From Lytechinus pictus (Eukaryota), in NCBI RefSeq assembly GCF_037042905.1, contig NC_087250.1:20896001-20960000 (forward strand): a stretch of 64,000 nt of DNA, given 5' to 3'. The position numbers and the translations under genes were made by a program. Positions 3,396 to 45,019 of the stretch are shown piece by piece. The stretch's first letter is position 1, and each line of letters starts with the position of its first letter. Under the pieces are notes generated by a model. That model saw only the letters and a list, made by a program, of their open reading frames with translations, ran no database searches and was not told the DNA's origin.

Positions 3396-5234
3396 ATTCC
3401 ATCGTAGTTCATCTTCTTATTTCGCATTGTTGTATGTAGTTTACAAATAATTCTTGTAGATAATGTATAGGGACGCGATCTTTTAATTACAAGTACGTTA
3501 TAATAGTTAAGTGCAGAGCCTGGTCCCTGATATAAGCATGACACAGCAGACACATATTCTTGAAAAAAAATATCTCAATTTTCATGATTTTGCTCTAGAT
3601 GTCTGATTTGGATGAAAAAAAAAATTGACTGGCACTCCTTTCGGGGAAAAATCAAATTAAATATATTGCCCTCGTCTAAAGACTCTGGCCAATATGATTC
3701 TTTTGTGGGCAATATATTTGATGTTCTCCTCAAGGTCAGTCGAATAACTATGAGTCTCAACAATAACATATTTACAATAATGAATTTGTGTATGACGATG
3801 AATATATTTACAATAATGAATGTACGTATAAAAATGAACATTAAATTGACATTAATGCATATGCGTATAAAAATGAACACATTTACAATCAAGATAAAGA
3901 CCCCGTTCCGGTACCCAGGTGAAAGGTTATATGAACAGACGTACGTTGGACCAAAGAAATACAATTTCTGGTCTGGCAAAATATCTTGTTTAATAATAAA
4001 ATCGATAGCATATCTAAAGAACGAGGTTGAGTACTAAATATTTTATATGTAAAATGTAATCTAGTTTGATTGTATCGGGCAATCATTCTTTTTTTTTCTA
4101 TTTTGAAAGGCAAAGTTTAGTTTTGATAAATTTCTATTCATTCAATATGAAGATATTGGAAGAAAAAGACATTGTTACCAACTTTCCATAACTTATTTTC
4201 TGGGTAGTTCCCTATAGAAATAGTTTTTCCAATAGTATAATCGATTACAAAATTATTTGCCGTCTTTCTTTTGTTTGGTGTGTCATGTTACCATAAGTAA
4301 TCACAAAGTAGGTAACTAATCTATAGTCTAGACAACAAGGTTTTACCTCAAACAAAATATGTATTTGTTACTGCAACAAATTTCTATTATATATTCGTAA
4401 TGATACTGATAATAATAATATTAATAATAATACTAATTCTGATAACAATAATGATGATGATAATGATGATAATAATAATGATAATAATAGTGATGATGAT
4501 GATGATGATGCTAACAATAATAATAATAATATCATTAATAATAACAATAATGATAATAATAATAATAGCAATGCTAATAACGATTTTGGTCCCCAACAAA
4601 ATAAAAGACAAATAAATAAATGACATCGGCACAAAGATTTTGAAAGTGCATACAAATTAAGCTGATGAATTGTCATTGCTATTGAAATGTAACTATGTTT
4701 TTAAACTAATATGAGAGAGGGGAAGGGGGGAGATGAGTAAAGGAGTGTACAAATAAGGATCATTATTCGTAAACTGAATGGCCCCTATTGTGAACTCCGG
4801 TGTAAATTAATCCCTGGTTTTATATATCTAAAGTTGTTGTTCAACTACGGAGAGTCAATAGTGGCACAAATCCCTTACAGTACACATTCAATTTATTAAC
4901 TCATTTGACACCCAAATTGTTCATAATTGTCTCGGAGTGATTTTTTTTCTTCACTATGAAAGCTGAGGGAAACAAAATAGTATACATAAGGAATATACAA
5001 TATAAACTTAATTTTTTGAATTTTTGGCTCCCCATAATTTTAGTACAAAGTTAGATCATGGTCTAAGTGAAGCCTGACATAAGAATACGTGCCAGTGTGT
5101 TTCGATGACGTTGCAACAGTGTGGATGATTTACACAACTTTCAGGTTTCCTGGATATCAATTCTCCACATCTTCTCCACTTTGACTTCACATCATATAAC
5201 AGCCATGAAATGATTGGTAACACTTAGTATACAA

Positions 5235-5300
5235 GGGACCAAAGAAAACATATGTCTCGGCCCGCCAAAATTTATATTTTATGACTAAATTTAACAATTA
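5235..5300 (-). ncRNA. Candidate Sm-class small RNA (Sm site + 3' stem-loop), module copy
   Basis: Minus strand AAUUUUGG (5272-5265) followed by a GGCC...GGUC hairpin with a G-U pair. 5' end is estimated. Confidence 0.3.
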
Positions 5301-6803
5301 ATTATTAGAAGTATCAGATTACTATAAAATTTATTTTGTAAACTTTATTCTAGTTTACGAAATGTTGGCCTGTAAAGATTTTTAACTATATTTTTTAGTG
5401 CAATGTTTCATTGTCTGTTTTTTCTTTTTAGGTTATTAAAAAAAAATAATACATTGCATCAAAACTATTTACCAAAAAATGGTGTGTGGATATAATTGAA
5501 AAGAAATTTAAAAGCATAATAGTTACTATATAATCGATTACATATTTATTTGCTGTCTATAATTACTTCGCGTTGTTGTATCCTGCCATATCTTAAATAG
5601 AGTACCGAAGTGTGACGTCATGATGTCATGACAACGGACCGACTGGGTCTAAACTTAGTCTCAACTCCACGATCGTCCATACACATTTGTATGACCATCA
5701 TTCTGAGAGTCATAACAAGGCGCCGGTTCATTGAGCTGATAGTAAGTTCACGACTTTAAGAACGACTGGTGATCCATAAAGTTAATGGTATAATCGGCGA
5801 TGGTTTAGCCAGTAAAAAGAATCACCAGTCGTTCTTAAGGTCGCTCCTAACTTATAAACAGCTTCTTGAAACGGCATAAGGGTTCATCTGTTTAGAACCA
5901 AGCCGCCATGACACCATGGCAACAGACGTCATCGCTTCGGTACTCCACAACCAATAGGAACCAACCTGCGTTTGTACTACAGGAAAAATGAGGTTTTACC
6001 CCGAACAAAATGATTGGCATGCACATATTTTTCACTGCAATGCATTTCTATTAGATAATAATTATAATAAAAAATAGCAATGGTGATAATAATCACGATG
6101 ATTTTTTCAACTAATTTTATAGAGATAAAGGGGAAAGAGAGATAGCATGAGAGAGTAACAATATGAATCATTATTTGTGAAAGAGTTTTTAGGTGAAGTT
6201 GAAACACAGTGGGAGATCTGAAGGAACTAGCAGATTTCTTGGAACGGTATACAACCAGACTGTAGAGCCTGATGCTGATGAGCAGATAAGCAAGATTTAT
6301 TTTAGCCCTCTCGTTGGTGAATTCACCTCCCTGCCAGGTCTCGTGTTGCATCATTGGAAAGAGTCAATGTGACTCTCTGAGAATGGTCATTTATTTCGAA
6401 TAATAGATGAAAAAATAATAATAATAGAGTAATAATAATAATAATAATTACAATAGTAATGATTATAATGATTATGGTCCGCACCAAAATAAGTGACAAA
6501 TAAATAAATGACATTGGCCCAGAGAATTTGAAAGGAAATGAATTAAGCTGATGAATTTTAAATGCTATGGAAAAATGTAATTATGGTTTTTAAGCAATAT
6601 GAGAGAGGGGAAGGGGAGAAAGTAGAGTAAAGAAGGGTGAAAATATGGATCATTATCCGATGACAGTTTGTTTGGGTGACGTTGCAACAGCGTGTGGGAT
6701 CTGGATAATTCCCAAGTTTTATAAAATGGTATAACAATTTTCTTTATTTTAGTGAATTTTTCTCACATCACAGCCATGAAGAGAATGGTTGCATATATTA
6801 TAG

Positions 6804-6865
6804 AGACCAGAGAAACCATAGTTCTCGGTCTGCCAAAATTTTGTAGATTTAATTTAGAAGTATAA
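6804..6865 (-). ncRNA. Candidate Sm-class small RNA, best-formed hairpin
   Basis: Minus strand AAUUUUGG (6840-6833), C, AGACCGAGAAC-UAUG-GUUUCUCUGGUCU. TAATCGATTA 258 bp and TGACGTCA 340 bp upstream. 5' end is estimated. Confidence 0.35.
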
Positions 6866-7489
6866 TATTACATGTGTAAGGGCATAACCAATTTCATATT
6901 AATCATTAGGTAAATTTTATTCTAGTTTAAAAAATGCCGGATTGTAAAATTTGTCGTTCATATTTTGTAGTGCAATATTTCATTAATTTTTCAATAAAAT
7001 ACATTAAAAAAAAGGAAATACATTTCTTTAAAACTATTTCTTAAGAAATTGTTGTGTGGATATAATTAAAAAGGAATTGAAAAGCGTATTGACTCTATAA
7101 TCGATTACATATTTATTTGCTGTCTATAAATACTTCATCTTGTTGTGTCCTGTCATATCATAAATAGAGTACCGAAGTGTGACGTCATAATGTGCCAGGA
7201 ACGGAATTTAATGCAATTATAATGTTTCGATTAGAGCTCAAACATGTGTTTTAAATATATTTTCACTGTAAGGACATTTCGGCAAATGGTTCATAGTAAG
7301 TTTTATTTGTAAAATGTATTCTAGTTTAAGAATGTTAGACTATTATTCTTCATTCATCTATACTTTGCAGGGCAATATTTTTTATAGAATCCTTTTTTTT
7401 CTATGTCATTCAAAAAAAATCCAATACTTTTAATAAACTTTCTTTAAGTTGGTGTTGGGATATTCCTGGTTGGAAACGGTCATTATATA

Positions 7490-9545: not shown

Positions 9546-11889
9546 TATATATATATATATATATCGTTATTTTTGTGTTGTGTGTTATCACAAACAATAA
9601 TTTTCAGGTTTCATGGAATGGTGTAACACTTTTCTTCATTTTTATCGAAGATAATATCTATGTTTACCTGAATATTTTTTCACATCATAGTCAACAAGAG
9701 AATGGTAGCATTTGGTATATGATACCAGAGAAACCAAAGTTTCTGTTGCGCCAAAATTTGTAGACAAAATAATTTCGTGATAATAACTATTTACGGCATA
9801 AGCTGTGCAAACTAATCATTAAGTAAATTTTAATCTATTTTGTAAAATGTTGGATTGTACATTTTTTTATTTATATTTTGTAGTACAATATTTCATTACA
9901 AAATTTGTTTTAAGAGAAAGGTTTAAAAAGAAAATACATTTCGTTAAAACTGTTTTCTAAAATTTGGTGTGTGGACATAATAAAAAGAAGTTAAGAAGCG
10001 CAGTGATTTTAATATAATCGATTATATAATTTTTTGCTGTCTGTAATTACTTTGCTTTGCTGTGTCCTCTCCTATCATAAAGAGTATCGAAGTGTGACGT
10101 CATGATGTCATGACAACGAACCGGCTGGTTCTAAACTTAGTCTCAGCTGCACGATCGTCTATACACATTTGTATTTGCAAAAATGGTGATGGGATTTGTC
10201 TCTAATTGTTACCATCATTCTGAGAGTCACAACAAGGCGCCGGTTCATTAAGCTCTTCGTAAGAGCGACTTTAAGAACGACTGGTGATGCTTTCTTAAGG
10301 TAAATGGTATACTTGGAGATGGTTTAGCGCGTAAAATAGAATCGCCAGTCGTTCTTAAAGTCGCTTCTAACTTCTAACTTTATAAAACGGCCCACGGGTT
10401 CATTTTGTTTAGAACCAGGCTTGTCTGCTTTGCAAACCCTTTTATCGAGTAAAGGGTCTGAATTGCAGCCTACTCATGCCTTGTGTACTGAAGGCCCTCT
10501 CGCTCAGGCAAGTTTTCTATGTGATAGTCTTTGCGTGGAGACACACTTGTTGATCAAAGTTTCAATCAGGGTCTGTGCCTGGCAACTGACGTCATCTCTT
10601 CGGTACTCTATATGATAACCCTTTGGAACCAACCTGCGTTTATACTACAGGAAAAATAAGGCTTCACCTCGAACAAATTGCAAAGCATATTTTTTTCACT
10701 GCAATGCATTTCTGTTAGATAATATTGATAATAAATGATGGTAATAATGATCATAATCACGATGATTTAAACTAATATAAAAAAAATAAAGAGGAAAGAG
10801 AGAGAGAGAAAGAGAGCGACAGAGAGCAATGTAGATCATTATTCGTAGACCCCCCCCCCCCCCCCCCCGGTATTTCCACCTTGAAGCAAACTTCCGGATC
10901 ATTTTCAGGTAATTTTCGGGAAATGAAAAAGTTCATGGAAATTTAGGGAAATCCGAAAATTACTCTTAAACAACAATTAAACGTAGCCACTTTCATTATC
11001 CGTCATATTCATAATCTAGACAGATGATTGTTCTAAATCTCCTCATGACTGTGACCAAAGAGAGTTCCAACTAATGTCACGAAAGTGCCATGAATCCCGG
11101 TATCTGAAGTCACAACCTGGGAATAGTACCCCGAGCCGTGACGTCAGACGTAAATAATTCAAAAACTATTTACGGGTGGGCGGGGCTTAACCCAAACTCA
11201 TGTCCCATGTGCACGTATACAAAGCGCGTATGTGATCAAGCCAGGGGCATCACCAAAGCTAATTAAAAGAACTGATGAATTCTCCCTCAAAGATTGCTAT
11301 TCATTCATTTATAATTACATTCCTTTCTGATGTTAATTCCGATGATGGATATAAATAAAATATATACGGCCTTCGATCCAGTGGCGTACCATGGGTCACG
11401 GCTTTAGGGGGGCACCAGCAAAACTTTTTAGTCACTTAATGAGCGCGCGAAGCTGCCATATATATACTGAACTAATAGAGACATTTTAAGCACAGTGTAA
11501 TTAAACGGATATGCATCTCACTGATCAAATAATGCGAGCGCGAAGCGCGAGCTGAAAATTTGCAGTGTGTGTACATAGCTGATTCAACGAGTCTGCATAG
11601 CAGACTAGCCCTGGAGTGGAAGTATTTTGAATTGTAGGTTGTATGTTGTCTCTTTGACCAATCAGAGTGCAGCATTCTTGCTTGTAAGCTGCGAAATATA
11701 CTTGACTCTCCAATAGGTAGATGCTGACCGTATTCCAACACCTTTTCTTATAACCAATAATATATTTAATTAAAGATTAGATCTTCAGCTTTATCGTGAT
11801 TCATAAATCATATTTGCTCGAAAAGAAATAAAGTGTAAGAAATAACAACTTTTGTCAAGTGAAAATAATTATTTTGTAGCATTTTTTAT

Positions 11890-14184: not shown

Positions 14185-14203
14185 AATCCCACTTCTGACA
14201 CCA
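14185..14203 (-). promoter_or_regulatory. Primer-binding site (probably tRNA-Leu)
   Basis: TGGTGTCAGAAGTGGGATT is complementary to a tRNA 3' end ...AATCCCACTTCTGACACCA. The Leu assignment is from recall. Confidence 0.85.
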
Positions 14204-14204
14204 A

Positions 14205-15607: not shown

Positions 15608-16015
15608 TTAAGCTTCTTTTTGAGGGCCTGCTGACTGACTGTATTGCAATTTCTTCATGGGTGATTTCTATTCACATCAAAGATATGAAGTGAATGATGG
15701 TGTTGTCTTTATTTCATGGTTATTACACCCATTACGATATTACAGTGTTTCCATAGATCAAAAACAAACTTCCCGAGACAGAATCCAGAATTTCACGGAG
15801 TGCGAGCGGAAATGTACGTATCGAGGTAAAAAATAAAATAAAATCTGTAAATATACATGGAACATGATTATTGACAGTTTGTACGTCAATTGTTTTTTCA
15901 GTTCCCAAACCCCTGTCTGGAAGATGTCGGAATACCTCGAATTTTCCGCTTTCAGGGTAGGTGAGAACATACTGCGGGAGCCGGTTGAAAGGTTACAATG
16001 CATGGGTAAGATTTT

Positions 16016-16080
16016 AGACCAAGAAAAATGTAAATCTTTGGTCTGCCAAAAGTTGGAAATCAAATTTAAAACTTATTTAC
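16016..16080 (-). ncRNA. Candidate Sm-class small RNA (variant AACUUUUGG); paralogue at ~24703-24765
   Basis: AACUUUUGG followed by AGACCAAAGA...UCUUGGUCU hairpin. Confidence 0.25.
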
Positions 16081-17724
16081 ATTGTAATTAGCAAAATTTG
16101 GCAATTCCTTATTAGTAATTTTTATTTGTAAAATATGTTCTAGTTTTAAGAATTGTTAGTCTATGAATATTTATTCAACTATATCTTACAGGGCAATTTT
16201 TCTCATAGAATTTTCTTAAAATGTTATTTTTTTTAAAAAGCCACTACATTTAATTAACTTTCTTTAAGTTGGTGTTTGGATATTTCTGGATGGAAACGGA
16301 CGTTAACATTACATAGTCGATCACTTGATATTTGCTATTTGTGTTGTGTGTTATAACAAATAGCCCAGATATAACTACCTGCTCCAACATTCCAGGAAAA
16401 ATAAGATTTTACCTCGAACAAATTACAATGCATATATTTTTTTCACTACAGTGCATTTCTCATGAATAATGATGGTAATATCGTGATGAAAATAACACCA
16501 TTATTGATTTTTCTAACTAATATCACAGAGAGGGGGGACAAGAGGGGGAGGGGGGGGGGTGGGAATGTGGATCATCATTCGTAAGAGTGTTTTGAGGTGA
16601 TGTTGAAACACTTTTGGTGATCTAAAGCAATTTTCAGATTTCCTGGAACGGTATAACAGTTTTTTTTTTATCATTGGCGTTTTCATTTTCATTCGAATTA
16701 AGGATTTATTCCTCCCTGACCATGTGGAATTACCACTATTGTATGTTTGGTAAACACCTACCTTATTAAAGCTCATTAAATATGGAACACTTCTACAGTC
16801 ACGAATATCACCGAAATAAATTAAAGGACAAGTCCATCTCAACACAATGTTGATTCAAATAAAGAGAAAAAATCCAACAAGCATAACTCTGAAACTTTCA
16901 TCCAAATCGGATGTAAAATAAGAAAGTTTTGACATTTTGAAGTTTCGCTTAATTGTACAAAATAGTTATATGCACATACGGTCGGTATGCAAATGAGGGA
17001 ACTGATGACATTACTCACTCACTGTTTCTTTTGTATTTTATGATATGACATATTCTAATTTTCCCATCATTGTCCTTTAAAACAAAGTTTTATTTGTCCC
17101 TGAACATGTGGCATTACCATCGTTTAACATGTTATGGTTCAGTGAAGTCGGTCCTTATTGTCAAATCTGTAAAAATTGAAATATTGTATAATTCAAACAA
17201 TAAAAGAAACAAGAGAAATAGTGAGCGAGGGACATCATCGATTCCCTCATTTGCATGTGGCTAAATTGTGCCTATAACTATTTTGTGAAAAATAAGCGAA
17301 ACTTAAGCATATCATAACTTTTTTATTTCACATCCGATTTTGATGAAATTTTCAGCATTATGCTTGTCTGATTTTTCTTTATTGATTCAAATCAAAAAAT
17401 TTATGAATTGAAATTTAGCTTTAAGCTTCTTTTTGAGGGCCTGCTGACTGTATTGCAATTTCTTCATGGGTGATTTCTATTCACATCAAATATATGAAGT
17501 GAATGATGGTGTTGTCTTTAATTCATGGTTATTATCGTCATGGTAACACCCATTACGATATCACAGTGTTTCCATAGATCAAAAACAAATTTCCCGAAAC
17601 AGAATCCAGAATTTCACGGAGTGCGAGCGGAATGTACGTATCAAGGTAAAAATAAAAAAAAATATGTAAATATACATGGAACATGAATATTGACAGTTTG
17701 TACGTCAATTGCTGTTAGTTGAAA

Positions 17725-18554: not shown

Positions 18555-18701
18555 GTTGAAATATTATTAATTTCTGGATTTCTTCATTTCCCAAACCCCT
18601 GTCTGGAAAATGTCAAAATATATCGGAACTTTCCGCTAACAGTGTACGTGAAAACATACTGCGGGAACCAGTTGAAAGGTTACATGCATGAGTAAGATAA
18701 T

Positions 18702-18765
18702 AGACCAAGAAAAATGGAAATCTTTGGTCTGCCAAAATTTGGAATCAAATTTAAAACTAAATTTT
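18702..18765 (-). ncRNA. Candidate Sm-class small RNA; near-identical copy at ~27383-27445
   Basis: AAUUUUGG (18739-18732) followed by an AGACC...GGUCU hairpin. Confidence 0.3.
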
Positions 18766-19803
18766 CCTTTAAGTGCATCAAATCGGCAATTGCTTAGTAG
18801 TAATTTTTATTTGTAAAATATGTTCTAGTTTAAGAATTGTTAGTCTATTAATCTTTATTTATCCATATCTTACAGGGCAATTTTTCTTATAGAATTTTTT
18901 AAATGTTAGTTAAAAAAAAAAAGCTACTACATTCAGTTGACATTCTTTAAGTTGGTGTTTGGATATTTCTGGATATTTCTGGATGGAAACGGTCGTTAAA
19001 TTACATAATCGATCACATGATATTTGCTATTATGTGTTGTGTACACAAAATAACCCCAGATATAACTACCTGCTTCAACTTACATTCCAGGAAAAATAAG
19101 ATTTTACTTCGAACAAATTGCAATGCATATATATTTTCACTGCAGTGCATTTCTCATGAATAATGATGATAATATTGATGATGAAAATTACAACACTAAT
19201 AATTATTTTTCTAACTAATTAACAGAGAGGGGGAAGAAAGAGAGGGGTGCAAATGTGGATCATCATTCGTAAAAGTGTTTTGAGGTGATGTTGAAACACT
19301 TTTGGTGATCTAAAGCAATTTTCGGATTTACTGGAACGGTATAACAATTTTTATCATTGGCGTTTTCATTTTTATTCTAATTAAGGATTTATTCCTCCCT
19401 GACCATGTGGAATTACCACTATTTTATCATCATGTGCCCCCCCCCCCTCCCTCCGAGGAACTTACAAATTTTCAAATTTGATTCTGTGTGACCTAAACGG
19501 TTATCATGTTTTCAAAATCAAACCAAAATAAGAAGTTTCTTTTCGTTTGTCCAATCAATATAACTTTTGTTTTCTTCCTATTGACATATTAATTCATAAC
19601 TTTTTAATATAAAATGAAATAATAATAATAATAAATGCAATAAAAATAATGATGATGATAATAATGATGATAATGATTATGGTCCTCAAAAAAATAAATG
19701 ACAAATAAACATAACAAACAAATAAATGATATTAGCCCACAGAATTTGAAAGGAAATGAATCAAGCTGATGAACTGTAAATGCTATGGAAAATGTAACTG
19801 TGG

Positions 19804-26300: not shown

Positions 26301-28754
26301 AGTGCGAGCGGAATGTACGTATCAAGGTAAAAATAAAAAAAAATATGTAAATATACATGGAACATGAATATTGACAGTTTGTACGTCAATTGCTGTTAGT
26401 TGAAACATGGACCTATTACGAATGGACATTCAACGAGAGCATTTTCCTTTTTCCAGCTGTCAAAATTGCTGTCACACAGTTGACTTTCTCTTTGCGCTTT
26501 TTTTGCGACGAGCGCCCGGGGCGGTTGTGTACTCAATCCCTTCTCGGACATTGACAGTCACCGCCCGATCTCTGGCCCTCTTTCGACCAGATGCGGTCAT
26601 GTAAGCTCGATTGCTGCGATCAGGGAAAGTCCCTGCATTACCTGTAATGCAATGCGCAATTTATTTCCGGTTTTCAATATATTATTTCACGCTGTCAATA
26701 CTGTGCAATTGTCGTCTGATCATCACAAAAATCCTATTAAATTTCGCCAATCCTCTATAATTTTACGCCCAAACGAAAATCAACTTGTGACCGAAGGTAA
26801 GCGCTACTATCGACATGATTACTGTCCGGAAAAGATGCATTTTAAACGTTTTTTCGCACATTTTTCCGTCAAATTTCAACTGCTTTTTTGCCGTAGATAT
26901 AATGATCTGCAAGGTGATGCCAATGCATTTCATGTGCGGTTGTTTGCGATGTATGTAAAAACTACGTTTATGCATGCCTGTTTTCTTGTTTCTGCAATCA
27001 TTTTCATAGCGCTAACGTTCGCTGCTGTGCGTTGCTTTTGATAAAGTGAACGAACAACATCGCAATGGGTAGGAGCAGCGTACAATTGATTTCCGCTGTC
27101 CATCAGTGATAGCGTGTTTTACGATCGGCTTGATGGGCGTCAGCTGCCAGCGCTCTGTTTATAAAAGAATTAGCGGTGACGGCCTTTGGCCCAAAGGAGT
27201 AGATTCGTTGAATGTCCATTTGTGATAAGTCAATGGTTGAAATATTATTAATTTCTGGATTTCTTCATTTCCCAAACCCCTGTCTGGAAAATGTCAAAAT
27301 ATATCGGAACTTTCCGCTAACAGTGTACGTGAAAACATACTGCGGGAACCAGTTGAAAGGTTACATGCATGAGTAAGATAATAGACCAAGAAAAATGGAA
27401 ATCTTTGGTCTGCCAAAATTTGGAATCAAATTTAAAACTAAATTTTCCTTTAAGTGCATCAAATCGGCAATTGCTTAGTAGTAATTTTTATTTGTAAAAT
27501 ATGTTCTAGTTTAAGAATTGTTAGTCTATTAATCTTTATTTATCCATATCTTACAGGGCAATTTTTCTTATAGAATTTTTTAAATGTTAGTTAAAAAAAA
27601 AAAGCTACTACATTCAGTTGACATTCTTTAAGTTGGTGTTTGGATATTTCTGGATATTTCTGGATGGAAACGGTCGTTAAATTACATAATCGATCACATG
27701 ATATTTGCTATTATGTGTTGTGTACACAAAATAACCCCAGATATAACTACCTGCTTCAACTTACATTCCAGGAAAAATAAGATTTTACTTCGAACAAATT
27801 GCAATGCATATATATTTTCACTGCAGTGCATTTCTCATGAATAATGATGATAATATTGATGATGAAAATTACAACACTAATAATTATTTTTCTAACTAAT
27901 TAACAGAGAGGGGGAAGAAAGAGAGGGGTGCAAATGTGGATCATCATTCGTAAAAGTGTTTTGAGGTGATGTTGAAACACTTTTGGAGATCTAAAGCAAT
28001 TTTCGGATTTACTGGAACGGTATAACAATTTTTATCATTGGCGTTTTCATTTTTATTCTAATTAAGGATTTATTTCTCCCTGACCATGTGGAATTACCAC
28101 TATTTTATCATCATGTGCCCCCCCCCCCCTCCGAGGAACTTACAAATTTTCAAATTTGATTCTGTGTGACCTAAACGGTTATCATGTTTTCAAAATCAAA
28201 CCAAAATAAGAAGTTTCTTTTCGTTTGTCCAATCAATTTCATTTTTGTTTTCTTACGATTTACATATTAATTCCTAATTTTTTAAATATAAAATGTAGTA
28301 ATCAATAATATCAATATTAATAATAATAATAATAATGTTAATAATGATAATAATGCAATAATAATAATGATGATAATAATAATGATAATAATGATTATGG
28401 TCCCCAACAAAATAAATGACAAATAAACATAACAAACAAATAAATAAATGACATTGGCCCACAGAATTTGAAAGGAAATGAATTAAGCTGATGAACTGTA
28501 AATGCTATGGAAACTGTAACTATGTTTTTTTTTTATAATTTGGGAGAGGGGATGGAAGAAAGAAGAGTAAAGGGGGGGGGGTACAAATATGGATCATTAT
28601 CTGGAAACAGAGTTTGTTTGGGTGACGTTGCAACCGCGTGGGTGATATAAATAATTTTCTGGTTTCATGGAATTGTTTAACAATTTTCTTCAGTTTCAGG
28701 AATTGTTTTTCACATCACAGCCATGAAGAGAATGGTAACACATGTTATAAGAGA

Positions 28755-31611: not shown

Positions 31612-31630
31612 ATTCAAGTTATTTCAAAAG

Positions 31631-31695
31631 AGACCATAGAAACAATTGGTTCTGGTCTGTCAAAATTAGCATTCAGTAAAAATAAAAAATTACCT
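31631..31695 (-). ncRNA. Candidate Sm-class small RNA
   Basis: AAUUUUGA (31667-31660) followed by AGACCAGAA...UUCUAUGGUCU hairpin. Confidence 0.3.
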
Positions 31696-34600
31696 AGAAG
31701 GGGCATAAGCTCGACATATTAATCAATAAGTAAATTTTATTCTAGTTTATAAAATGTTCGTTTGTAAACAAAAAAATATTTATATTTTTTAGTGCAATAT
31801 TTCATTATAATTTTTTTTTTAAGATTAAAAAAGAAAAAAACATTTCGTTAAAAGCATTTTCAAAAAATTGGTGGGTGGACATAATAAAAAGCGTATTGAT
31901 TGTAATGTAATCGATTATATAATTATTTGCTGTCTGTAATTAATGGGTAAAATAAGAAAGCCGTTTCGCTGAATTAGGCTTCGTACAAAGGTGTCAACTT
32001 GTTACTGTGCCAACACTAGTCTTTTTACTTTTGTTGATGTTCTTAGTTGAGGTTTTCTGTTATGTATAAGCGTTTGGAGTGTATTATTTTACTGTATTCA
32101 TGGTATGTGTATTACATGTACTGAGTGTATGTAAATATTGTATATATGTTGATATTTTCATGAATAAAATTATTGAAAGAAAAAAAATTACTTTGTGTTG
32201 CTGTGTCCTGTCCTATCATAAACAGTACCGAAGTGTGACGTCAAGATATCATGACAACGAACCGGCTGGTTCTAAGCTTAGTGTCAGCTGCACGATCGTT
32301 TATACACATTTTTATTTTGTGAAAACAGTCATGAATATTCATTAGGTGGGATGATGATGTCACATCCCCACTCTCCTTTTTCTTACGTTATGACATGAAC
32401 TCATAATTTTTTTGATTTTTTCATCCATTTGTAAATGATGTGTCTCCATTATGATAGAATAAGTTGCGGCAATAAATAACAAATGCACTTAATCAGTTGT
32501 CAATCCGATTGTTATAGTTCTTGGTAGAAATTTTTTGAATAAACCTAATTTCAGATAATAAAATGCAAAAGAACAAGTTTGGATATGACATCATCAGCCC
32601 ACCTAATGAATATTAATAATGACATGCCTAGAACTGTTTCGCCGGAAAAATGCAAATCTTTAAAAATCAATATTTCTGATTCAATTCAATATTTCTGATC
32701 TGATTTTGATCCAATTTTCAACACTTTTTGAATTTTACTCTATTTATTGAGATATCAATTACGTCAGCCTGGACCATCCTGTTGATTGTAATTATCTGAA
32801 TTTTCTGCATTGTTTTTTTCATTCTCGAACTTTTCCTGTAAAAGAGTAAAAATTTACCGATTTCCCGCACTGCGAAAAGAGTTGAAACATACTGTGGGAT
32901 CCAGAGAGAAGTTTACAAGAATGAAGGTTTAAGGATTTATAGACCAAAAGTGTCATGACTTTTTTTTTTCTTTCAATAATTTTATTCATCAAAATATCAA
33001 CATAATTATATACAATATTTACATACACTCAGTACATGTAATATACATACCATGCATACAGTAAAATACTACACTCCAAAACGCTTATACATAACAGGAA
33101 ACTTTACCTAAGAACATCAACAAAAGTAAACCGTCAAGTGTAAAACCACCACGGTAACAAGTTGGCACCTTTGTACGAAGCCTAATTCGACGAAAAGGCC
33201 TTCTTCCCCCCCCCCCCCAACCATTACTCTAAGCAGGGACGTCCCTGCTCGAAGCCATGTGATGTACTCACTCCCTTTAAAACTATCCGCTTATAAACCA
33301 AGGCTTGCGCACTTGCCATTCTCTAAAATGTATTACTTTCCCTTTAAACACATTGAAATTTTAGCAAATATTACTTCTACTTGGAAAAGAGGCTTGGGCT
33401 TATCAGTATATTTTATTTATAAAATATAATCTAGTTTAAAATTATTGCCCATAATTTTTTTTCTACATTTTACAGGGCACAATTGAAAAAAATAATATTC
33501 TTTTGATATGTAAGTGGTAAAAATATATACAATACACTTAAATAACTTTCTATAAATTGGTGTTTGGGTATTTATGCATGGAAACGGTTATCGACAGTCG
33601 TATAATCGATCACATGATATTTCCTATCTTTATTTTGTGTTTTCTTATCACAAATAACCGCCTAGATAGCTCTTTGCTTTAACACTCCAGGGTAAATAAG
33701 ATTTTACCCCGAAAAGAAAGCGATTCGTATATATTTTCACTGCAATATATTTCTATTGAATAATGGTAATAATAACGATGACTGTAATGATATTTATATT
33801 TTTTTAACTAATGTAAGAGAGTTTTGGAAGAGAGAGTGAGATAAGGAGATAAGGTGGAATTTGGATCGTTATTCGTAAAAAGAGCATGTTTGGGTGACGT
33901 TGAAATACTACCCTGAAAATGTAAAGCTATTTTTTTTCATGTCTTTTTTATTTTCACAACAAAGCTATGAAGTGAATGACAGCGAGCTGTATTTGAATCA
34001 AGAACGATGTTATGTTAAATACATGGTTTGCAACTAAATAAATAAATTAAGTCAAAGATACTACTAGGGTAAGATCGGACGGTACATAGACCGCGTACTG
34101 AAACGCTCGGGAAGAGCGCCCCCACAGCGTTGATTAAGTAACGACCTTTAATTTACCTTTGCATATCGCGATATACCTCAAGAGGTGTTCGTGTACGTTC
34201 CAGTCCACTTCACCACCTACCCGAACAACAAGGTGGTGAACTCGCTCTGATACTCCGAGTGACAAAGGTGTGATTTTATGGGGGGGGGGGGGGGGGGGGT
34301 ATAAAACTCATGCACCAAGACGATCTTTAAAAAGAATTAAAAATACGTATCTTCTTACTTTCATTTCTCTTTCACTCCATATCCATCCTCCAGTTAGTCT
34401 CTAAATTGATGATTTAGAGCCAGTATCGGGTTCCTCACACGTATTGATTCACTGCCGATTCCAAAACATCTTAAACGCATATATGCGCATGCGCTGAAAT
34501 CCGGCACAAATTATGAATATTCATGAGAGGTCGAGATCTGTGCGAAAAACCAAGGAGCTTCCAACACAAAACTACCCCGATCTACAATAGTCAAATAAAA

Positions 34601-35114
34601 AGATATTAAAAAAGCTGAAGCGTATTGAAAAAGTCTGAAATAGAAAGAGCTCCCATACTTTTTTGTACAGAGGAAAGCCAAATATAAGCTGAAATTCAGC
34701 TGAAAATCAATACAAAAATATCTGATATCAAATAAAAATCTGAACTCTCGCACGCCTGAATAGTCCTATCATGAATATTCATAAATTGAGCTGCGATTTC
34801 CTTGCTTGAGGTGAAATCTACACAATGCTAAAGAAAGATAGGAAATAATTATGTAATCGATTGTGTATAAATTATGTTTAAAATCAACGACTCCGAATAA
34901 GTAGTAAGCAATAATCCAAAATTTGTATGAAATATTTTTATGAACTAGTGCGTTCCATTTGTAATATTAATTGTTAAAAAAACCAAACCTTCTCCCTAAA
35001 AGATACGTTCAATAAAAAATAATAATTAAATAAAAGTTCTATGACTAAGAATATCAGCTAGAAAATATTTTACAAACTTGATATACTAGCATGTGCTCAA
35101 TACCCAAAGTATTG

Positions 35115-35175
35115 ATTTGAATATATTTTAACAACATAGAATTTTGATGGCCCGAAACATTAGTTTCTATGGGTT
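35115..35175 (+). ncRNA. Candidate Sm-class small RNA, inverted module; paralogue at ~37495-37556
   Basis: AAUUUUGA (35140-35147; 37521-37528) followed by GGCCCGAAAC...GUUUCUAUGGGUU, versus GGCUCGAAAC...GUUUCUAUGAGCU in the paralogue (compensatory C-G/U-A change). Confidence 0.33.
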
Positions 35176-37875
35176 GATTGATACTCAAGTTTAATTTAGA
35201 AAGTCAAAAAGGGGCCTAAGCTTTCGATCCTAGCAGAATCTTCGTCGATAAAGTCCATCAGTCTGCATGAGCAAGATTTATCCAAGTCCTCTCGTTGCTG
35301 AATTCATGTCCCTGCAAAATCTCGTAAATTGTGAGACTTTCCTTTCTCAAAGAAGTTTTTTTTCTTTTCTTTCAATAATTTTATTCATCAAAATATCAAC
35401 ATATATACAATATTTACATACACTCAGTACATGTAATATACATACCATGCATACAGTAAAATACTACACTCCAAACGCTTATACATAACAGGAAACTTTA
35501 CCTAAGAACATCAACAAAAGTAAACCGTCAAGTGTAAAACCACCACGGTAACAAGTTGGCACCTTTGTACGAAGCCTAATTCGACGAAAAGGCCTTCTCC
35601 CCCCCCCCCCAACCATTCCCTGCTCGAAGCCATGTGATGTACTCACTCCCTTTAAAACTACCCGCTTATAAAGCAAGGCTTGCGCACTTGCCATTCTCTA
35701 AAATGTATTACTTTCCCTTTAAACACATTGAAATTTTAGCAAATATTACTTCTACTTGGAAAAGAGGCTTGGGCTTATCAGTATATTTTATTTATTAAAA
35801 ATAATCTAGTTTAAAATTATTGCCCATGATTTTTTTTCTACATTTTACAGGGCACAATTGAAAAAAATAATATTCTTTTTATATGTAAGTGGTAAAAATA
35901 TATACAATACACTTAAATAACTTTCTATAAATTGGTGTTTGGGTATTTATGCATGGAAACGGTTATCGACAGTCGTATAATCGATCACATGATATTTCCT
36001 ATCTTTATTTTGTGTTTTCTTATCACAAATAATCGCCTAGATAGCTCTTTGCATTAACACTCCAGGGTAAATAAGATTTTACCCCGAAAAGAAAGCGATT
36101 CGTATATATTTTCACTGCAATATATTTCTATTGAATAATGGTAATAATAACGATGACTGTAATGATATATATTCTTTTAACTAATGTAAGAGTGTATTGG
36201 AAGAGAGAGTGAGATAAGAAGATAGGGTGGAATTTGGATCGTTATTCGTAAAAAGAGCATGTTTGGGTGACGTTGAAATACTACTCTGAAAATGTAAAGC
36301 TATTTTTTTTTATGTCTTTTCATTTTTACAACAAAGCTATGAAGTGAATGGCAGCGAGCGGTATTTGAATCAAGAACGATGTTATGTTAAATTCATGGTT
36401 TGCAACTAAATAAATAAATTAAGTCAAAGATACTACTAGGGTAAGATCGGACGGTACATAGACCGCGTAATGAAACGCTCGGGAAGAGCGCCCCCACAGC
36501 GTTGATTAAGTAACGACCTTTAATTTGCCTTTGCATATCGCGATATACCTCAATAGGTGTTCGTGTAAGTTCCAGTCCACTTCACCACTTACCCGAACAA
36601 CAAGGTGGTGAACTCGCTCTGATACTCCGAGTGACAAAGGTGGGATTTTATGGGGGGGGGGGGGGGGTATAAAACTCACGCACCAACACGATCTTTAAAA
36701 AGAATTAAAAATACGTATCTTCTTACTTTCATTTCTCTTTCACTCCATATCCATCCTCTGGTTAGTCTCTAAATTGATGATTTAGAGCCAGTATCGGGTT
36801 CCTCACACGTATTGATTCACTGCCGATTCCAAAACATCTTAAACGCATATATGCGCATGCGCTGAAATCCGGCACAAATTATGAATATTCATGAGAGGTC
36901 GAGATCTGTGCGAAAAACCAAGGAGCTTCCAACACAAAACTACCCCGATCTACAATAGTCAAATAAAAAGATATGAAAAGAGCTGAAGCGTATTGAAAAA
37001 GTCTGAAATAGAATGAGCTCCCATACTTTTTTGTACAGAGGAAAGCCAAATATAAGCTGAAATTCAGCTGAAAATCAATTAAAAAAAATCTGATATCAGA
37101 TAAAAATTTGAACTCTCGCACGCCTGAATAGTCCTATCATGAATATTCATAAATTGAGCTGCGACTTCCTTGCTTGAGGTGAAATCTACACAAGACTAAA
37201 GAAAGATAGGAAATAATTATGTAATCGATTGCGTATAAGATTATGTTTAAAAGCAACGACTCCGAATAAGTAGTAAGCAATAATTCCAAATTAACATTAG
37301 CAATTGTATGAAATATTTTTATGAACTAGTGCATTTAATTTGTAATATTAATTGTTAAATAAACCAAACCTTCCCCCTAAAAGATACTTTCAATAAAAAA
37401 TAATAATTAAATAAAAGTTCTATGACTAAGAATATCAACTAGAAAATATTTTACAAACTTGATATACTAAAATGTGCTCACTATATATGGTTTTAATTTG
37501 ATTAGATTTTAACAAAATAAAATTTTGATGGCTCGAAACATTAGTTTCTATGAGCTGATTGATACTCATGTTTAATTTAAGATCATGTACATCAGTCTGC
37601 AAGCCCCTGTGCAAATGAGCAAATGAGTAAGATTTATCCAAGTCCTCTCGTTACTGAATTCATGTCTCTGCAAGATCTCGTGAATTGTACGTGAGACTTT
37701 CTTTCTCAAAGAATTTTTTTTTTCTTTCAATAGTTTTATTCATCAAAATATCAACATAATTATATACAATATTTACATACACTCAGTACATGTAATATAC
37801 ATACCATGCATTCAGTAAAATAATACACTCCAAACGCTTATACATAACATACAACTTTAACTTTCTTTATGCCAT

Positions 37876-39507: not shown

Positions 39508-42172
39508 TTAATTTATTGCATAGCAGACGATTATTACTTATTTTCCAAACACTGTCCCATTCCCAACTTGGATCCTTAACCCTACATTTTGGAACAAAAT
39601 CTATTGTTAACAAAGAAATAACATCCTTTAGTGTTTTACAAGTGGTAACAAAATCTTGCTTACGACTGTATAGAATTTAACCACTTTCTCCTATTTTTGT
39701 ACAATGAGAAAGAGTAAATGTTACTTTTTTATATTTGTTATTTCTTTGAATAAAATATTTTGATAAATAAGTGAATAAGCTTCCTCTAGCTTGATTTACC
39801 TTTACCATCGGGGTCTTGAATGGTCAATGTCAGTTATCCTCAATTTGGTGTTCCTTTAGATGGCCTGATTAATAGGGAAGGTAAATGAAAGCCATCTTTA
39901 ATTGTTTTAGAGATATGTCCGATATGTATTCATTTATTTCAAATATTTAAAAGAAGGGTAGCCCAATCAGCAACAAGCTGGTTTTCGTTGGGGCCCCTTC
40001 GTAAACAAACATAAATATAAAACATGTCACATATCCGTAGATAAAACCTAAGTTTGTGTCTTGTAATGGTTCTCTCTTAAAAGAGAGAATCAGTCTGTTT
40101 GACAGGATTTTGTTGAGGTGTTGAAATGGTCGGAGTGCGCCTCTCCATGACTGCAATGAATTTCATGAGTAGTGTCCCATTTTCTATTTATCAAACTTCT
40201 TATATTGAAACATGGAGCTGACGTCTTCGTAGAACAGCTTTTTCTATTAGCTTATACGAAGAGATCTTCCATCTGGAACAAATAAAAAGGGAGAGCTTTG
40301 CCATGTATAAATGCAATCGTATATGCACAAAAGTAAACATCTAGAATTAAACCTGTGTCAGATTAGAGTCTGCGGGTGACACTGTTATCATACTAGCCGA
40401 TTTCGGATTGAATTATTATCACTACTCGCATGTAAAGGGGACTTAAATCTGTTTTCATTGTAATCGATTATAACAAAATGTATAACTCATGAAAAAATGT
40501 ACTGACACTTTTATCAGTAATAATCACATATTGATAATTAGAATAAAATGAATTAGAAAAAATCTCAACCAAAAAACATATGATGTAAATTTGTTCTAGT
40601 TCCTTTATTTACCTACAAATTCATATCAATAATTATAAACCTCTCTTTAAGAATGTCGAATAATCCGTTCCTTTGATACTATATGAAAACATGAAACTAT
40701 ACTTCCTGAAGCATACGGACGGACATTTTTGTCGCAACAGAATTGTATAAGTTTTATAACACCATCACCGACGGATGGTCCAATATCCTATATATGAAAG
40801 AAAATACATGTTCATTACATAGCTTTCCTCATAAATCTGCTCAAATGTGGTCGGTCACAGATTACAACCGTTTGGGATTTATGATAAAGGGATGGTCCGG
40901 GCTGAAAATATGGAGGCTTTTTAAGCAGCTGTGAGTGAGCGAAGTGAACGAGCAAAATATTCGATCTCTTCAATACAAAAAGAATCTTATTTTGCGATAG
41001 ATTTAAACATACCTGTAATACGCTAAAATGAAACTTGTGACAGGTAAGAATCTGCGAATGACACTGTTATCATACTAACGGATTTGGGATTGTATCACGA
41101 TCACTATTCGCATATAACAAGAGACATACATTTTTATCATAATCGATTATTATAAAGTATAACTAATGAAAAAAAATTACAATTATGTCAGTAATGAAAA
41201 ATAATGAACAATGAACATTAAGTAACAGGCTTTTTTAATTTTTTAATTTTTATGATGAACCAAAACATATGATGTAAATATTTTGAAGCCATTTTTTATA
41301 TAAGTACAAATTTACATCATTAACTAGGATATACCATGAATATATATTTTATATTAAAGAGAAGCTCCGTCTGTATTTCGACGGACGACATTTGGTCGTA
41401 ACAGAATTGTATCCTTTTTGGAAGACCACTACTGACGGATGTGGTCTATTGTACTCAAAAGAAAGAACATGTTCATTGCATCCTCCACATACATATTCAT
41501 CGTTATCGTTCCCTAATTGTGAATGGCCACAGTTTACAGTCGCTGCGGATTTATTATAAATCGTTGAAATTCATAGAAGTCAAAGACTGGAGGGGCAAGA
41601 CTTGGCGTATGATGGAGGCTTTATACACAGCTCGCTGCAAGGGAGCAAAATATTTTCACCTCAAAAATACAAAGATGTAATTCTTAGATAGGTTTTAAAA
41701 TACTAGTATAATAATAAAAAATATAATTTAGGATTTCCCGGCGAATTCGCTCAATTTTCATTTTAATCAATATTTTTGGCATTTGAATTAGCTTAGATCG
41801 GTTTTACCGTGCAAATTGTCATTACATATTTTTATTTTTACATAAGATTAACGATGTTTGTCAAAGATTTGTGAGTTCTTTTCATTGAAATTAGAAACGA
41901 ACCAGTTAGCAACTGTCAGTGATTATCAAAGCGTCATTTCTAGCTTTAAAGTTAGCGATTGGAATTCTTTTTTTTTTTTTGAAGGGATCATTCAAGTTAA
42001 GAATGCATGGGAATAAATGTTAAAAGTGCTTAAAAATCTTAGAATGTGCCGAAAATGCCTGTTTGTCGTTTTGATCTACTATGTCATTTCCTCTATTCGT
42101 TATCAAGAACGAAGTATCTGGGTCTATTCAGAATTTTAGCTATAATATAAGAAGGGGAGTAATAAATGCACT

Positions 42173-42360
42173 GGGCTGGGCGTTGTGGCGTGCGCATGTA
42201 ATCCAAGCTGTGGGGAAGTTACAAATTGATGCAGAGGTTCGAGCCCTGGTCACGCCTTTCGGATGGTGACGTTAAAGGTCGGTCCCAGACGTAAATAATC
42301 ATATCTGATTTGATTGATACACGTCTGACAAAACTCAAATACACACACACACACACGCAC
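42173..42360 (+). mobile_element. SINE with a 7SL/Alu-domain-like head, B box, Deu-like core and (CA)n tail
   Basis: GCTGGGCGTTGTGGCGTGCGCATGTAATCCAAGCT matches the recalled 7SL 5' end at 27/35 positions; then GGTTCGAGCCC and CTTTCGGATGGTGACGTTAAA. Confidence 0.65.
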
Positions 42361-43451
42361 ATTATGCACAGACACGTCTATAGCATATTGAGCATGATGT
42401 GATGGTCACATCTGTGCAGTACCCTCAACTCTCCCTTTCGCTGTACAGATTTGGAATATAACAAGAATACTGAACTCACAAGGGCGCCAACCTAACAACA
42501 ACCAACCACAATAAAATTATGATGAATATAAGTAAGATTAATCGCACATATTGATACATGCAGATATATATATATATAATATATATAATATGTTTGTATA
42601 TATATATGTAATTATAGATATATTGTAGATCTTTTTTTTCATTTCATTTTATGTGGTGATGGATAAAACAAGATCTGACAAATTCTTAAGTTAAGCATTA
42701 TAATTGCAAAACCTAGCATGATTATACTGTATACGAAAAAAAAAGAAACAAAAATAAAAGAAAGGTGGAGAAATAAATGAAGAACACTCTCTAATGTCGA
42801 TAAAGTAAGAATAAAAGATAAAGAATAGGAATCCCATGAGCACTGCATAAATTAGAGGCAAATTATAATGCACTTTGTGCTGATTTGATTGCTATACTGC
42901 GAAATTAAATAATAAAATCATGCCGTCGCGAGAACCGAAAACCATTTGTGCTAAAAAGGAGGACCGCTTTGCAAAAGAAGGACATTGTTCATTGATTAAA
43001 AAGAAACTACAATTCATGCTAATAGAACTTCGTAAATATTTAAACAAGAAAAGGATTATAAAGCAAATATATCCCAGAGTGCACGGAATCCGTCGAATTT
43101 GAAAGAATTTAAAATTTAACATCAATCCTCTACTCCCGATACCGTCCGGGATATCCTATATTATTTCCTTTTTCTCTTTGTTCTTCTCCATTTTTTTTCT
43201 TGACTATGATGATCATATTGATTTGATAAACATTAATTCACTTTCGGAATTCAAAGTGAGGTTCTACGTGGTATTGGATAGAGCCCTCCCTGCTCAAGTT
43301 TGAGACACATAGGGGGTACATGTACTCAGTGGCGTACCTAGGATTTTCCACAGGGGGGGCAAAACCGTCCGCCAAAAAATTTGACAAGCAAAAAAAAATA
43401 AAGGTCTTCGATCAAAAATAAGGGATTCCGTACCTGAAAAAAAATTTGACA

Positions 43452-43486
<35 letters not shown>

Positions 43487-45019
43487 TCTTCAAGCTCGTC
43501 AGGGGGGGCAATAAAGATGAAGAAATTTGCTAGAATAGTAAATTTTTCAATAAGTGACGTCATAAACGAGCAGCTACCCCATTTCTTATGTAATATAAAA
43601 TTCTTGAGTTTACTTGGATTTTTTTTTTTTTTGCTTTCAGTGGCATTTTTGAAATGATATGTTGGTTGATATATTGAAGGTGCAATGAAAACATTTACAT
43701 TATTTTTGTTAGAAAGTGGCATTTTATTGTTTATTTCTAATTCACGTAGTATGACGTCACAAATGAAAAATAAACTCCTGATAACTGTTTTAAGTAGCTG
43801 TGAGTGAGTGAAGCGAACGAGCAAAATTGTTGATCTCTGTAATAAAAAAATTATTATGTGATAGATTTAAACACACCAGTAATATTCAGAAAATAACATG
43901 TTCCACTCTTTCCTTTTCTTTTCGTCATTTTCATTGGCCATGGAAAATTTGGGGTCCATTACACCAAAGCCCCCCCCCAAAAAAAAAAAAAAAATAATAA
44001 ATAAAATATATATATATATATATAATACACTGTAGCAATGTTCAATCAAAATGTAGCAGGCTTATTGCTAAGATAACTGAATGCAACACATTTTACATGT
44101 TGAGTTCTATGGGAAAAAAATGTGGGAAATTGAGATATTAAGAGGAGGGAAAAGTGGAAATAGCCTCCAACAGGAACAAATAAAAGAGGGGAGCTTTGCT
44201 CTGTATGACTGCATACAGCAAATTACTAAGAAACTTGTGACAGATAAGAGTCTGTGGATCGATTTGGGATTGTATCACTATTCGCATATAAAAAGTGACA
44301 TACATTTTTTATTTATAATCGATTATAAAAGTAAAAACTTGTAAAAAGTACTGAAAAATTGAACACTTATGTCAGTGATATTTTAAAAATTATTGTTAAT
44401 TAACATTGTTTTTCAATAAATTCTTTAATTGTTCAATTTTATTGATGAAAATTAAAAATAAAATATTTAGAAGTTAATGTTTAGTTAGGTTCAAATTTAT
44501 ATCAATAACTAGAATATATTATTACTAAATTTTGTATAAATACATGAAGCTTCTTTCATCCTCTGACGGACGACATTTGGTCGTAACAGAATTGTATCCT
44601 TTTTGGAAGACCATCAAGGACGGATGGTCTGATTATATTGCAAAGAAAGTTCATCTTCATCACACAAATATTTCGTACATCCATTCCAAATGTGAATGGT
44701 CACAGTTTACAGCTATATGGATTTGTTAAATTTCAATGGAATCTAAATTTTGAGGGGCGAGACTTGACGTATGGACATGATAGAAGCTTTATAAACAGCT
44801 CGCTGCGATTGAGCAAAATATTTTCACCTCTCTAATACAACAAATGACATTTTGAGATAATATAGGTTTAGAAATACTAGTATAATACTCAAATGTAATA
44901 CAGGATTTCCCGGCGAAATTAACGCATTTTATTTGGAATCGATATTTTGGGCATTTAAATTAGCGTAGATAATAATTATAGTAATAACAATAATAATAGT
45001 TCTTAATTACCCAGGGTAT

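Follow-up and report, generated by a model that had tools for sequence, protein, structure and literature searches.

A clustered family of putative snRNA-type mini-genes carrying an Sm-like site and a terminal hairpin in Lytechinus pictus

In a 64,000-nucleotide stretch of the Lytechinus pictus genome (hereafter the window; positions 20896001-20960000 of contig NC_087250.1, here called C6), we analysed an array of diverged non-coding units that had been noticed in a reading of the sequence alone. Each unit combines a promoter like that of small nuclear RNA (snRNA) genes with a U-run resembling an Sm site and a terminal hairpin. We consider it an even call whether the locus is an expressed family of snRNA-type mini-genes for an Sm-class-like RNA outside Rfam, the transcription of which we infer from these features; part of the array may consist of relics. 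One subfamily, termed type G, has the complete anatomy of an snRNA-type gene, and for this subfamily the prediction is well supported.

The window is AT-rich (G+C 31-44%) and contains 17 homologous units of ~330-350 bp each, spanning 3.9-44.7 kb. A profile search with nhmmer, in which the profile was built from 5 copies and then from 19, found 14 full and 2 partial units between 3863 and 37569. Three further units, on the plus strand at 40.4-44.7 kb, were found with a covariance model of the U-run and hairpin and by direct reading. The sequence-only reading had counted ~17-18 modules, in good agreement with this number. It had also listed eight exact AATTTTGG/GA sites (5265, 6833, 9751, 18732, 27413, 31660, 35140 and 37521), all of which we recovered on the strands it had given, and four variants (3977, 16046, 21037 and 24733), which lie inside covariance-model matches at 3941-3987, 16009-16057, 21001-21048 and 24696-24744.

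The alignments show the order of motifs that had been proposed. A palindromic TAATCGATTA block lies far upstream, followed by two more conserved blocks, a proximal AACTAGAA box and an AT-rich, TATA-like stretch; after ~25-38 nt come the U-run (AAAUUUUGG in most units) and then a hairpin of 9-10 bp. The TAATCGATTA sequence is a perfect palindrome at most sites and lies ~210 nt upstream of the predicted start, and the distal enhancer of snRNA genes occupies a comparable position. Two of the blocks are strongly enriched in the window: TAATCGAT has 24 strand-matches at 15 sites against 3.37 expected, and CCAMACACCAA, with at most one mismatch, occurs 12 times against 2.77 expected (0/100 shuffles in each case). 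The AATTTTGR octamer occurs at chance frequency (27 matches against 26.85 expected; 55/100 shuffles reach 27), and the non-random aspect of this Sm-like octamer is its fixed position within homologous units. In the 15 of 17 units that allow a measurement, the TAATCGAT-like block lies 252-301 nt from the U-run, and in 14 of 17 the ACTAGAA-like box (at most one mismatch) lies 82-108 nt from it. The box was also found 83-97 nt 5′ of the U-run in 30/30 copies passing a script filter that itself demanded a box within 130 nt. Subfamilies whose flanks cannot be aligned retain the same five blocks at the same spacing, and several units lie within large recent segmental duplications (80-100% identity) that also carry transposon debris. 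We take the 17 units to descend from one ancestral gene, type G included, because type G and the non-G units have in common the TAATCGATTA block, the box, its distance from the U-run and a GACCA...TGGTC stem.

The proximal box was compared with 16 U1, U2, U4 and U5 genes and 5 U6-type genes, taken with their flanks from the same genome (812 Mb in 368 contigs, which is also the genome searched below). U1 lies in 1405-bp and U2 in 1037-bp tandem repeats; such arrays, and the 3′ box described next, are as expected for sea urchins. The core of the proximal sequence element (PSE), AAC[TC][AG][TG] or CACTGT, starts at -57 to -59 in 12 of the 16 U1/U2/U4/U5 genes, and the tandem U2 gene has its core at -58 together with TATATA at -30. 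A 3′ box AAAGAAAGA (at most one mismatch) starts at +12 to +19 in 14 of the 16. The U6-type genes were scored in the four that are full-length (the fifth, on C16, looks like a retro-copy), and three of these have a PSE at -64/-65 with a TATA-like box at -31 to -33. One of them, on C6, reads CTAACTAGAT and has the same AACTAG hexamer as the units. Judged by sequence, the ACTAGAA box of the units is of the PSE type of this genome, which supports the earlier proposal that the units are individually promoted, snRNA-gene-like modules.

As a separate observation on the U6-type genes, three of them (L037, L038 and L039, on C2 and C6) share a 5′ stem (GTCGACAAGAAATTGTTGAC...) that is altered relative to the best U6 match, on C18. 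All three have a PSE and TATA of their own and so may be expressed U6 variants. A fourth copy, on C16, ends in poly(A) and resembles a retro-copy.

The type G subfamily has six copies genome-wide, all on C6, of which three (G1, probably a relic, G2 and G3) lie in the window at 40.4-44.7 kb. G2 and G3 have an identical 50-nt stretch before the hairpin. In the type G alignment, the TAATCGATTA block and the box, which reads TTAACTAG(G/A)ATAT, are conserved; after a TATA-like stretch and a spacer that is less so comes a body of ~68 nt that runs from GACGGACGAC to the end of the hairpin. Five copies have a mean pairwise identity of 0.83 in the body, compared with 0.60 upstream of it and 0.44 further downstream. 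Counted back from the first A of the body, AACTAG is at exactly 59 nt and the TATA-like stretch at -31/-33, which compares with -58 and -30 in the tandem U2 gene. Past the hairpin by ~10-12 nt, AAAGAAA[GA] is found in 5 of the 6 copies; the chance of a 3′ box at that place is ~0.005 per lineage by rough hand arithmetic from base composition. The predicted RNA, ~68-70 nt long, would fold into two hairpins, one on the 5′ side and one of 7-8 bp on the 3′ side, with the U-run in the single-stranded stretch between them. Its fold has modest z-scores against shuffles (-1.3 to -2.0), and the 3′ hairpin of G3 has one extra base per arm (U and A), which pair with each other. Because the 3′ box occurs together with a PSE and a TATA-like box at the appropriate positions, type G is well supported as a predicted snRNA-type gene.

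Types A-E accompany type G in the window, types F and H occur elsewhere, and ~30 non-G units are found elsewhere on C6 and C9. The 14 non-G units of the window retain the hairpin and a canonical-looking Sm site, along with the blocks of the promoter. The alignment columns of the U-run are invariant or nearly so, the hairpin starts within 1-4 nt after the U-run in all copies, and 86% of stem cells are paired, compared with 30-61% when the partner columns are slid. Constraint on the blocks shows in nine sister pairs, where the mismatch rate is 9% for the conserved blocks, 17% for the remaining columns of the core and 38% for a variable segment. We take the non-G units to be putatively transcribed variants that differ in their 5′ ends, with some relics among them.

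This variable segment, ~30 nt long, lies where the 5′ end of the RNA would be expected. On a tree of 20 copies, parsimony changes peak at 6-9 per column over ~30 columns, 25-55 nt before the U-run, against a mean of 3.2. The type H array, which played no part in defining the segment and is independent of types A-F, repeats the pattern: among 15 aligned copies, identity is 0.25-0.48 in the segment (from ~45 nt after the PSE start to ~8 nt before the U-run) and 0.46-0.94 elsewhere in the unit. These divergence figures may be too high if AT sequence with many indels is misaligned. The suggestion of variable 5′ ends is supported for types A-F and array H, which are hypervariable just upstream of the U-run, and does not extend to the three units at 40.4-44.7 kb, which are conserved there. 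Very recent duplicates have 3/31 and 0/31 mismatches in the segment, with no excess of change, and so its divergence does not reflect ongoing hypermutation. Should the start lie 59 nt past the box, like that predicted for type G and those of genuine snRNA genes, the segment would span roughly -14 to +22, taking in the surroundings of the start and ~20 nt at the 5′ end of the RNA.

Six 71-nt queries from the 5′ segments, compared with the genome by a search that uses long exact words and misses short complementarity, gave no recurrent outside matches. Five matched only themselves or family members. The one outside match concerns the 30 nt just before the type C U-run (L001:6480-6509), which recur perfectly and on the same strand at L044:532-561 (C12:28753431-28753460). 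That site on C12 has no unit and adjoins a common repeat. A guide-like function of the 5′ segments is pure inference.

The whole genome contains roughly 45-50 members of the family, grouped in a few C6 arrays apart from a single copy on C9; these counts come from filtered searches and are lower bounds. Each of two unit cores used as a BLAST query returned 9 matches, all lying on C6 apart from one on C9. A pattern of U-run plus stem gave 18 matches in the whole genome (16 on C6, one on C9 and one on C18) against 2 for a reversed control, and exposed the type H array at C6:22.135-22.165 Mb. This array has 17 model matches at E<=0.25 (L031-L033), all on one strand and 0.3-1.3 kb apart; other arrays lie at C6:20.15, 20.89 and 25.74 Mb. 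The unit family is not a dispersed transposon. What is dispersed is a ~96-nt repeat holding TGACGTCA, which had initially been described as a part of the module confined to type A. This repeat (5596-5692 on the minus strand, upstream of unit 2; also in L004-L006) makes up on its own 32 of the 42 listed genome matches, on many contigs. Since types B and E have the next conserved block (D14) directly abutting the core, the ~96-nt piece is an insertion and not ancestral. The repeat ends in TGACGTCACACTTCGGT and is inserted into type A units; at least 14 contigs carry copies of it at 85-91% identity. Splice-site-like strings were seen by eye near the D14 block.

Checks of open reading frames (ORFs) and Pfam domains in the window and in the flanks of the other arrays found no protein-coding gene accompanying the units; all they turned up were fragments of transposons and, at a distance of 10 kb, a single glycosyltransferase gene. 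Within the window, the Pfam matches are a reverse-transcriptase fragment, a gag/PNMA-like ORF and the glycosyltransferase outside the array. A coding interpretation of the array was rejected: the ORFs of at least 90 aa inside it look like translated microsatellites or non-conserved frames.

Expression data were mapped on 3900-19500 at 90% likeness, from two raw cDNA runs and two contig sets; the type G region lies outside this interval. Most mapped reads are 90-95% alike, fall equally on both strands and run into unlike sequence, and for these reasons we attribute them to transposon copies. The unit cores have a depth of ~0, which is uninformative either way, as this is poly(A)-type cDNA, possibly of a different species. 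Such libraries would miss non-polyadenylated RNAs of 60-70 nt.

Several observations weigh against the family being one of expressed Sm-class-like RNAs. The type G start (41381 and 44566) was placed at the onset of conservation, at the first A of the body, and the type G U-run site reads UCCUUUUUGG, with C rather than A before the U-run. The strict Sm consensus RAU3-6GR is found in only 23 of 40 aligned copies. A 3′ box is present within 45 nt of the hairpin in 0/37 non-G copies, in a scan to +300, and at a comparable place in 0/19 cores. (We also considered a 3′ box on the opposite strand, where the reversed 3′ arm CCAAAGAAA resembles the box, but its middle base varies freely among copies.) Tests for covariation indicated a stem that is kept by sequence conservation: covariation is not significant (one pair and 4 cells changed on both sides; 33-43 of 500 shuffles equal this), the covariation score is not above shuffles, and RNAalifold found no consensus structure in the plain MAFFT alignment. 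Paired double changes are few (type D GCCC/GGGC versus GCTC/GAGC), too few for a test. Sense and antisense strands fold equally well (mean -8.2 versus -7.6 kcal/mol). GU outnumber AC mismatches by 19 to 8 (p=0.05), with non-independent copies and register problems, and many type H copies have a weak upper stem. The variable columns in the sister-pair comparison were picked after seeing the data. Finally, no Rfam family reaches its gathering threshold in the whole window, and at E up to 10 nothing relevant is found in 3900-10200 or in 40300-44900, the latter covering type G; this accords with the sequence-only reading, which had recognised no U1, U2, U4, U5, U7 or spliced-leader sequence. Its proposal of a cluster of Sm-class RNAs is supported in part, by the PSE and the full anatomy of type G, and is not supported by the 3′ ends and stems of the non-G units.

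These points could be accounted for if the array were mostly a graveyard, in which only type G is or was working and the others are duplicated pseudogenes whose motifs survive through recent duplication and gene conversion, with no functional RNA. We regard this as unlikely, though still a real contender. The missing 3′ boxes and covariation are in its favour, as are the decayed upper stems of many type H copies, the decayed hairpin of type E and the units that share recent segmental duplications with transposon debris. However, the same five blocks are kept at the same spacing among subfamilies with unalignable flanks, the blocks of sister pairs change half as fast as neighbouring core columns, and stem complementarity is high. 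Pseudogenes would moreover predict no segment diverging about twice as fast as the core, and this segment recurs in the independent array H. That the units act as DNA, as an enhancer, insulator or chromatin array of protein-binding modules bound at TAATCGATTA, the CCAMACACCAA block and the GGACCA...TGGTCC inverted repeat, without a stable RNA, seems improbable to us. It would fit the resemblance of several short blocks to factor sites, the palindromic TAATCGATTA, the conservation of both hairpin arms as sequence rather than through covariation and the equal folding of the two strands. It does not explain why the box agrees with the PSE of genuine snRNA genes both in sequence and in position, or why in type G it is joined by a conserved body the size of an RNA, a TATA-like box and a 3′ box. 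The units also lack accompanying copies of a protein-coding gene, and there are double changes that keep the stem, both in type D and in the matched U and A of G3.

Two further alternatives concern the polymerase and the origin of the array. The units could be U6-type mini-genes of RNA polymerase III that make a very short RNA ending at the U-run, with the hairpin outside the RNA. In favour of this are the presence of a PSE together with a TATA-like stretch, the AACTAG hexamer that the units share with the U6-type gene on C6, and the role of TTTT as a stop signal for polymerase III. We nevertheless rejected a type-3 gene as very unlikely: the PSE of type G lies at -59, like that of polymerase II genes including the tandem U2 gene, and not at the -64/-65 of U6-type genes here; the conserved hairpin and the type G 3′ box, both beyond the terminator, would be left unexplained; and in some type B units a TTTT already occurs within the variable stretch, ahead of the U-run. 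To a decayed array of transposons, Helitron-like or of another mobile element with a terminal hairpin, we give next to no credence. The hairpin does lie near one end of the unit and the arrays are full of transposon fragments, but the cores recovered are confined to a few C6 arrays and the C9 copy, contrary to the dispersed-element alternative raised at the outset. Read and contig depth over the cores is ~0, compared with hundreds to tens of thousands over neighbouring transposon pieces, and only the ~96-nt TGACGTCA piece is dispersed.

Compared with the U1, U2, U4 and U5 genes of the same genome, the putative mini-genes are alike in forming local arrays, in a proximal element whose AACT core lies ~58-59 nt ahead of the start, and in a terminal hairpin that comes after a single-stranded, U-rich site. 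They also resemble the tandem U2 gene in the TATA-like box at -30, and type G shares the 3′ box AAAGAAAG(A), placed ~11-12 nt past the hairpin. The units differ in an RNA body without an Rfam match, in a predicted RNA that would be much shorter (~60-70 nt) and in that their copies have diverged and are not homogenised; 14 of the 17 window units differ further in lacking a 3′ box and in having a variable 5′ part.

U7 is closer in size. According to PMC5054213, U7 measures 57 nt in sea urchin and up to 70 nt in flies, its genes are clustered in sea urchins, frogs and zebrafish, and its defining features are the site RUUUNUCYNG and a UCUUU histone-binding box. Measured against that account, the units are alike in size class, in the succession of a short 5′ part, an Sm-type site and one 3′ hairpin, in an snRNA-type promoter for polymerase II and in gene clustering. 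However, RUUUNUCYNG and UCUUU are absent in the units, whose site is the spliceosomal-type AAUUUUGG. A U7 identity was rejected, as the alignments read AAAUUUUGGC in the units and CCUUUUUGGA in type G, without a preceding UCUUU. The Rfam U7 model gave no match at E up to 10 over 3900-10200 or 40300-44900; a search of the genome for the U7 family gave none either and is uninformative, since its control matched nowhere. A spliced-leader RNA was likewise rejected: in types A-F and H no stretch is less conserved than the 5′ part, and there is no donor-like GU at a fixed place.

In overall design, the array resembles the 21U-RNA loci of Caenorhabditis elegans. These are reported (PMC6317315, PMC6436959, 10.1101/2020.05.01.072298) to be many clustered, individually promoted units with an upstream motif and snRNA-type machinery, which give short polymerase II transcripts of differing sequence, ended with the help of Integrator. 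The window units share the clustered, individually promoted design with an upstream motif. The nematode transcripts are ~28 nt long, number thousands and are not known to have an Sm-like site or hairpin, whereas here there are tens of units, in which a conserved U-run and hairpin come after the variable part. The two are alike in logic and not by homology. Other short non-spliceosomal RNAs with an Sm site and a terminal hairpin are the HSURs of herpesvirus saimiri. The Like-U snRNA of Drosophila is reported as an orphan RNA of this kind, short, Sm-class and non-spliceosomal (PMC4053861). These are single genes or a handful of viral genes, known to be expressed, and none is known to form a diverged array with a hypervariable 5′ segment.

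Table 1. Units of the array, numbered along the window, with strand in brackets
Unit	Type and remarks	Position	Landmarks	Basis
1	C	3941..4247 (-)	TAATCGAT block 4240-4247; AACTAGAT box ~4066; U-run 3981; hairpin to 3941	nhmmer E=7.5e-72; covariance model 45.5 bits
2	A	5229..5540 (-)	TAATCGAT 5533-5540; AACTAGAA ~5355; AAATTTTGG 5264-5272; hairpin to 5229	nhmmer; covariance model
3	A	6797..7107 (-)		nhmmer; covariance model
Partial	Type-B-like promoter blocks, no U-run or hairpin	7249..7487 (-)		nhmmer E=5.7e-35, profile positions 73-314 only
4	A	9715..10024 (-)	box reads AAAATAGATT	nhmmer; covariance model
5	B	16009..16323 (-)	AACTTTTGG	nhmmer; covariance model
6	B; identical to copy 27376-27696	18695..19015 (-)		nhmmer; covariance model
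7	A; sister of unit 4	21001..21266 (-)	U-run TTCTG	nhmmer; covariance model
8	B	24696..25011 (-)		nhmmer; covariance model
9	B	27376..27696 (-)		nhmmer; covariance model
Second partial		28662-28780		
10	A; insertion in upstream part	31626..31917 (-)		nhmmer; covariance model
11	E; hairpin arms largely replaced or decayed	33282..33612 (-)	U-run ACATTTTAG	nhmmer E=1.9e-65; fold
12	D; inverted	34854..35182 (+)	lower stem GCCC/GGGT	nhmmer; fold; covariance model
13	E	35657..35987 (-)		nhmmer; fold
14	D; inverted	37222..37563 (+)	lower stem GCTC/GAGC (paired double change relative to sisters)	nhmmer; fold; covariance model
15	G1; degenerate type G, probably a relic	40461..40800 (+)	box AATTATAA; weak U-run; AAAGAAAAT after hairpin	
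16	G2	41140..41466 (+)	TAATCGATTA 41140-41149; AACTAGGA 41322; TATA-like ~-33; predicted start 41381; U-run 41415; hairpin to 41446; 3′ box AAAGAAAGA 41458-41466	
17	G3	44316..44650 (+)	TAATCGATTA 44316-44325; AACTAGAA 44507; TATAAAT -31; predicted start 44566; U-run 44600; hairpin to 44629; 3′ box AAAGAAAG 44642-44649	

The window also contains other features. A tRNA-Arg gene (anticodon TCG) lies at 38020-38091 on the minus strand, between the inverted type D and the type G units. At 11855-13892, also on the minus strand, are two long ORFs resembling those of long terminal repeat retrotransposons, one gag/PNMA-like with a zinc knuckle and then one that is protease-like, with no Pfam match; one 6165-nt contig of run X1 spans 11894-14232 with few differences. 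A weak match to the 5′ (Alu) domain of the metazoan signal recognition particle RNA is found at 42175-42315 on the plus strand (21.9 bits, E=0.009, below threshold). A similar GCTGGGCGTTGTGGCG... piece lies upstream of one type H unit (L032 ~3960-4060) and may be the head of a 7SL-derived short interspersed element. An uninterrupted ORF of 290 aa at 47861-48733 on the minus strand has a nucleotide-diphospho-sugar transferase domain (Pfam PF03407, E=3.7e-38), and a 35-aa repeat of its C-terminus lies just downstream, at 47739-47843.

Simple and tandem repeats are found in several places. (AAT)n microsatellites at 4398-4567, 6399-6469, 19605-19690 and 28299-28392, and also in L002 and L028, share a conserved flank (…ATTATGGTCC…AAATGACAAATAAA…), occur once per larger repeat unit and are kilobases long at the C9 locus. 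A tandem array at 19887-20694, with 163- and 192-bp periods and 86-91% matches, lies past a type B unit and beside a (CGG)n run. An 80-bp tandem repeat at 55098-55342 has 3.1 copies, 97% matches and a run of ~15 G per copy.

If the putative mini-genes are expressed, the snRNA-activating complex would bind the proximal element and RNA polymerase II would start ~59 nt downstream of the box, making an RNA of ~60-70 nt in which the U-run beside the terminal hairpin would be the loading signal for the Sm ring. In type G, the 3′ box would serve 3′-end formation, and non-G units could use promoter-proximal termination, by analogy with nematode Piwi-interacting RNA (piRNA) mini-genes as reported in the 21U-RNA accounts cited above. 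A bolder hypothesis, which we hold to be doubtful, is that the ~45-50 mini-genes share one Sm-loading module and use a fast-changing 5′ segment of ~25 nt to pair with different targets, forming 'programmable' Sm-class particles. These would resemble a diversified U7, or a guide system parallel to the nematode piRNA mini-genes.

If the type G RNA is made, a deuterostome would have a small nuclear RNA of Sm-class-like type that has not been described before and belongs to no Rfam family. The other units, should RNA be made from them as well, would be the first clustered mini-genes outside nematodes to combine snRNA machinery with diversifying transcribed 5′ parts, and also the first such mini-genes to bear an Sm-loading module, which raises the question of whether Sm-class particles serve as a platform for guide RNAs beyond U7. 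If the non-G units are relics, the locus records the birth and decay of an snRNA-type gene family. The work on this locus also yields a clean picture of the rules that the PSE and 3′ box follow in this genome.

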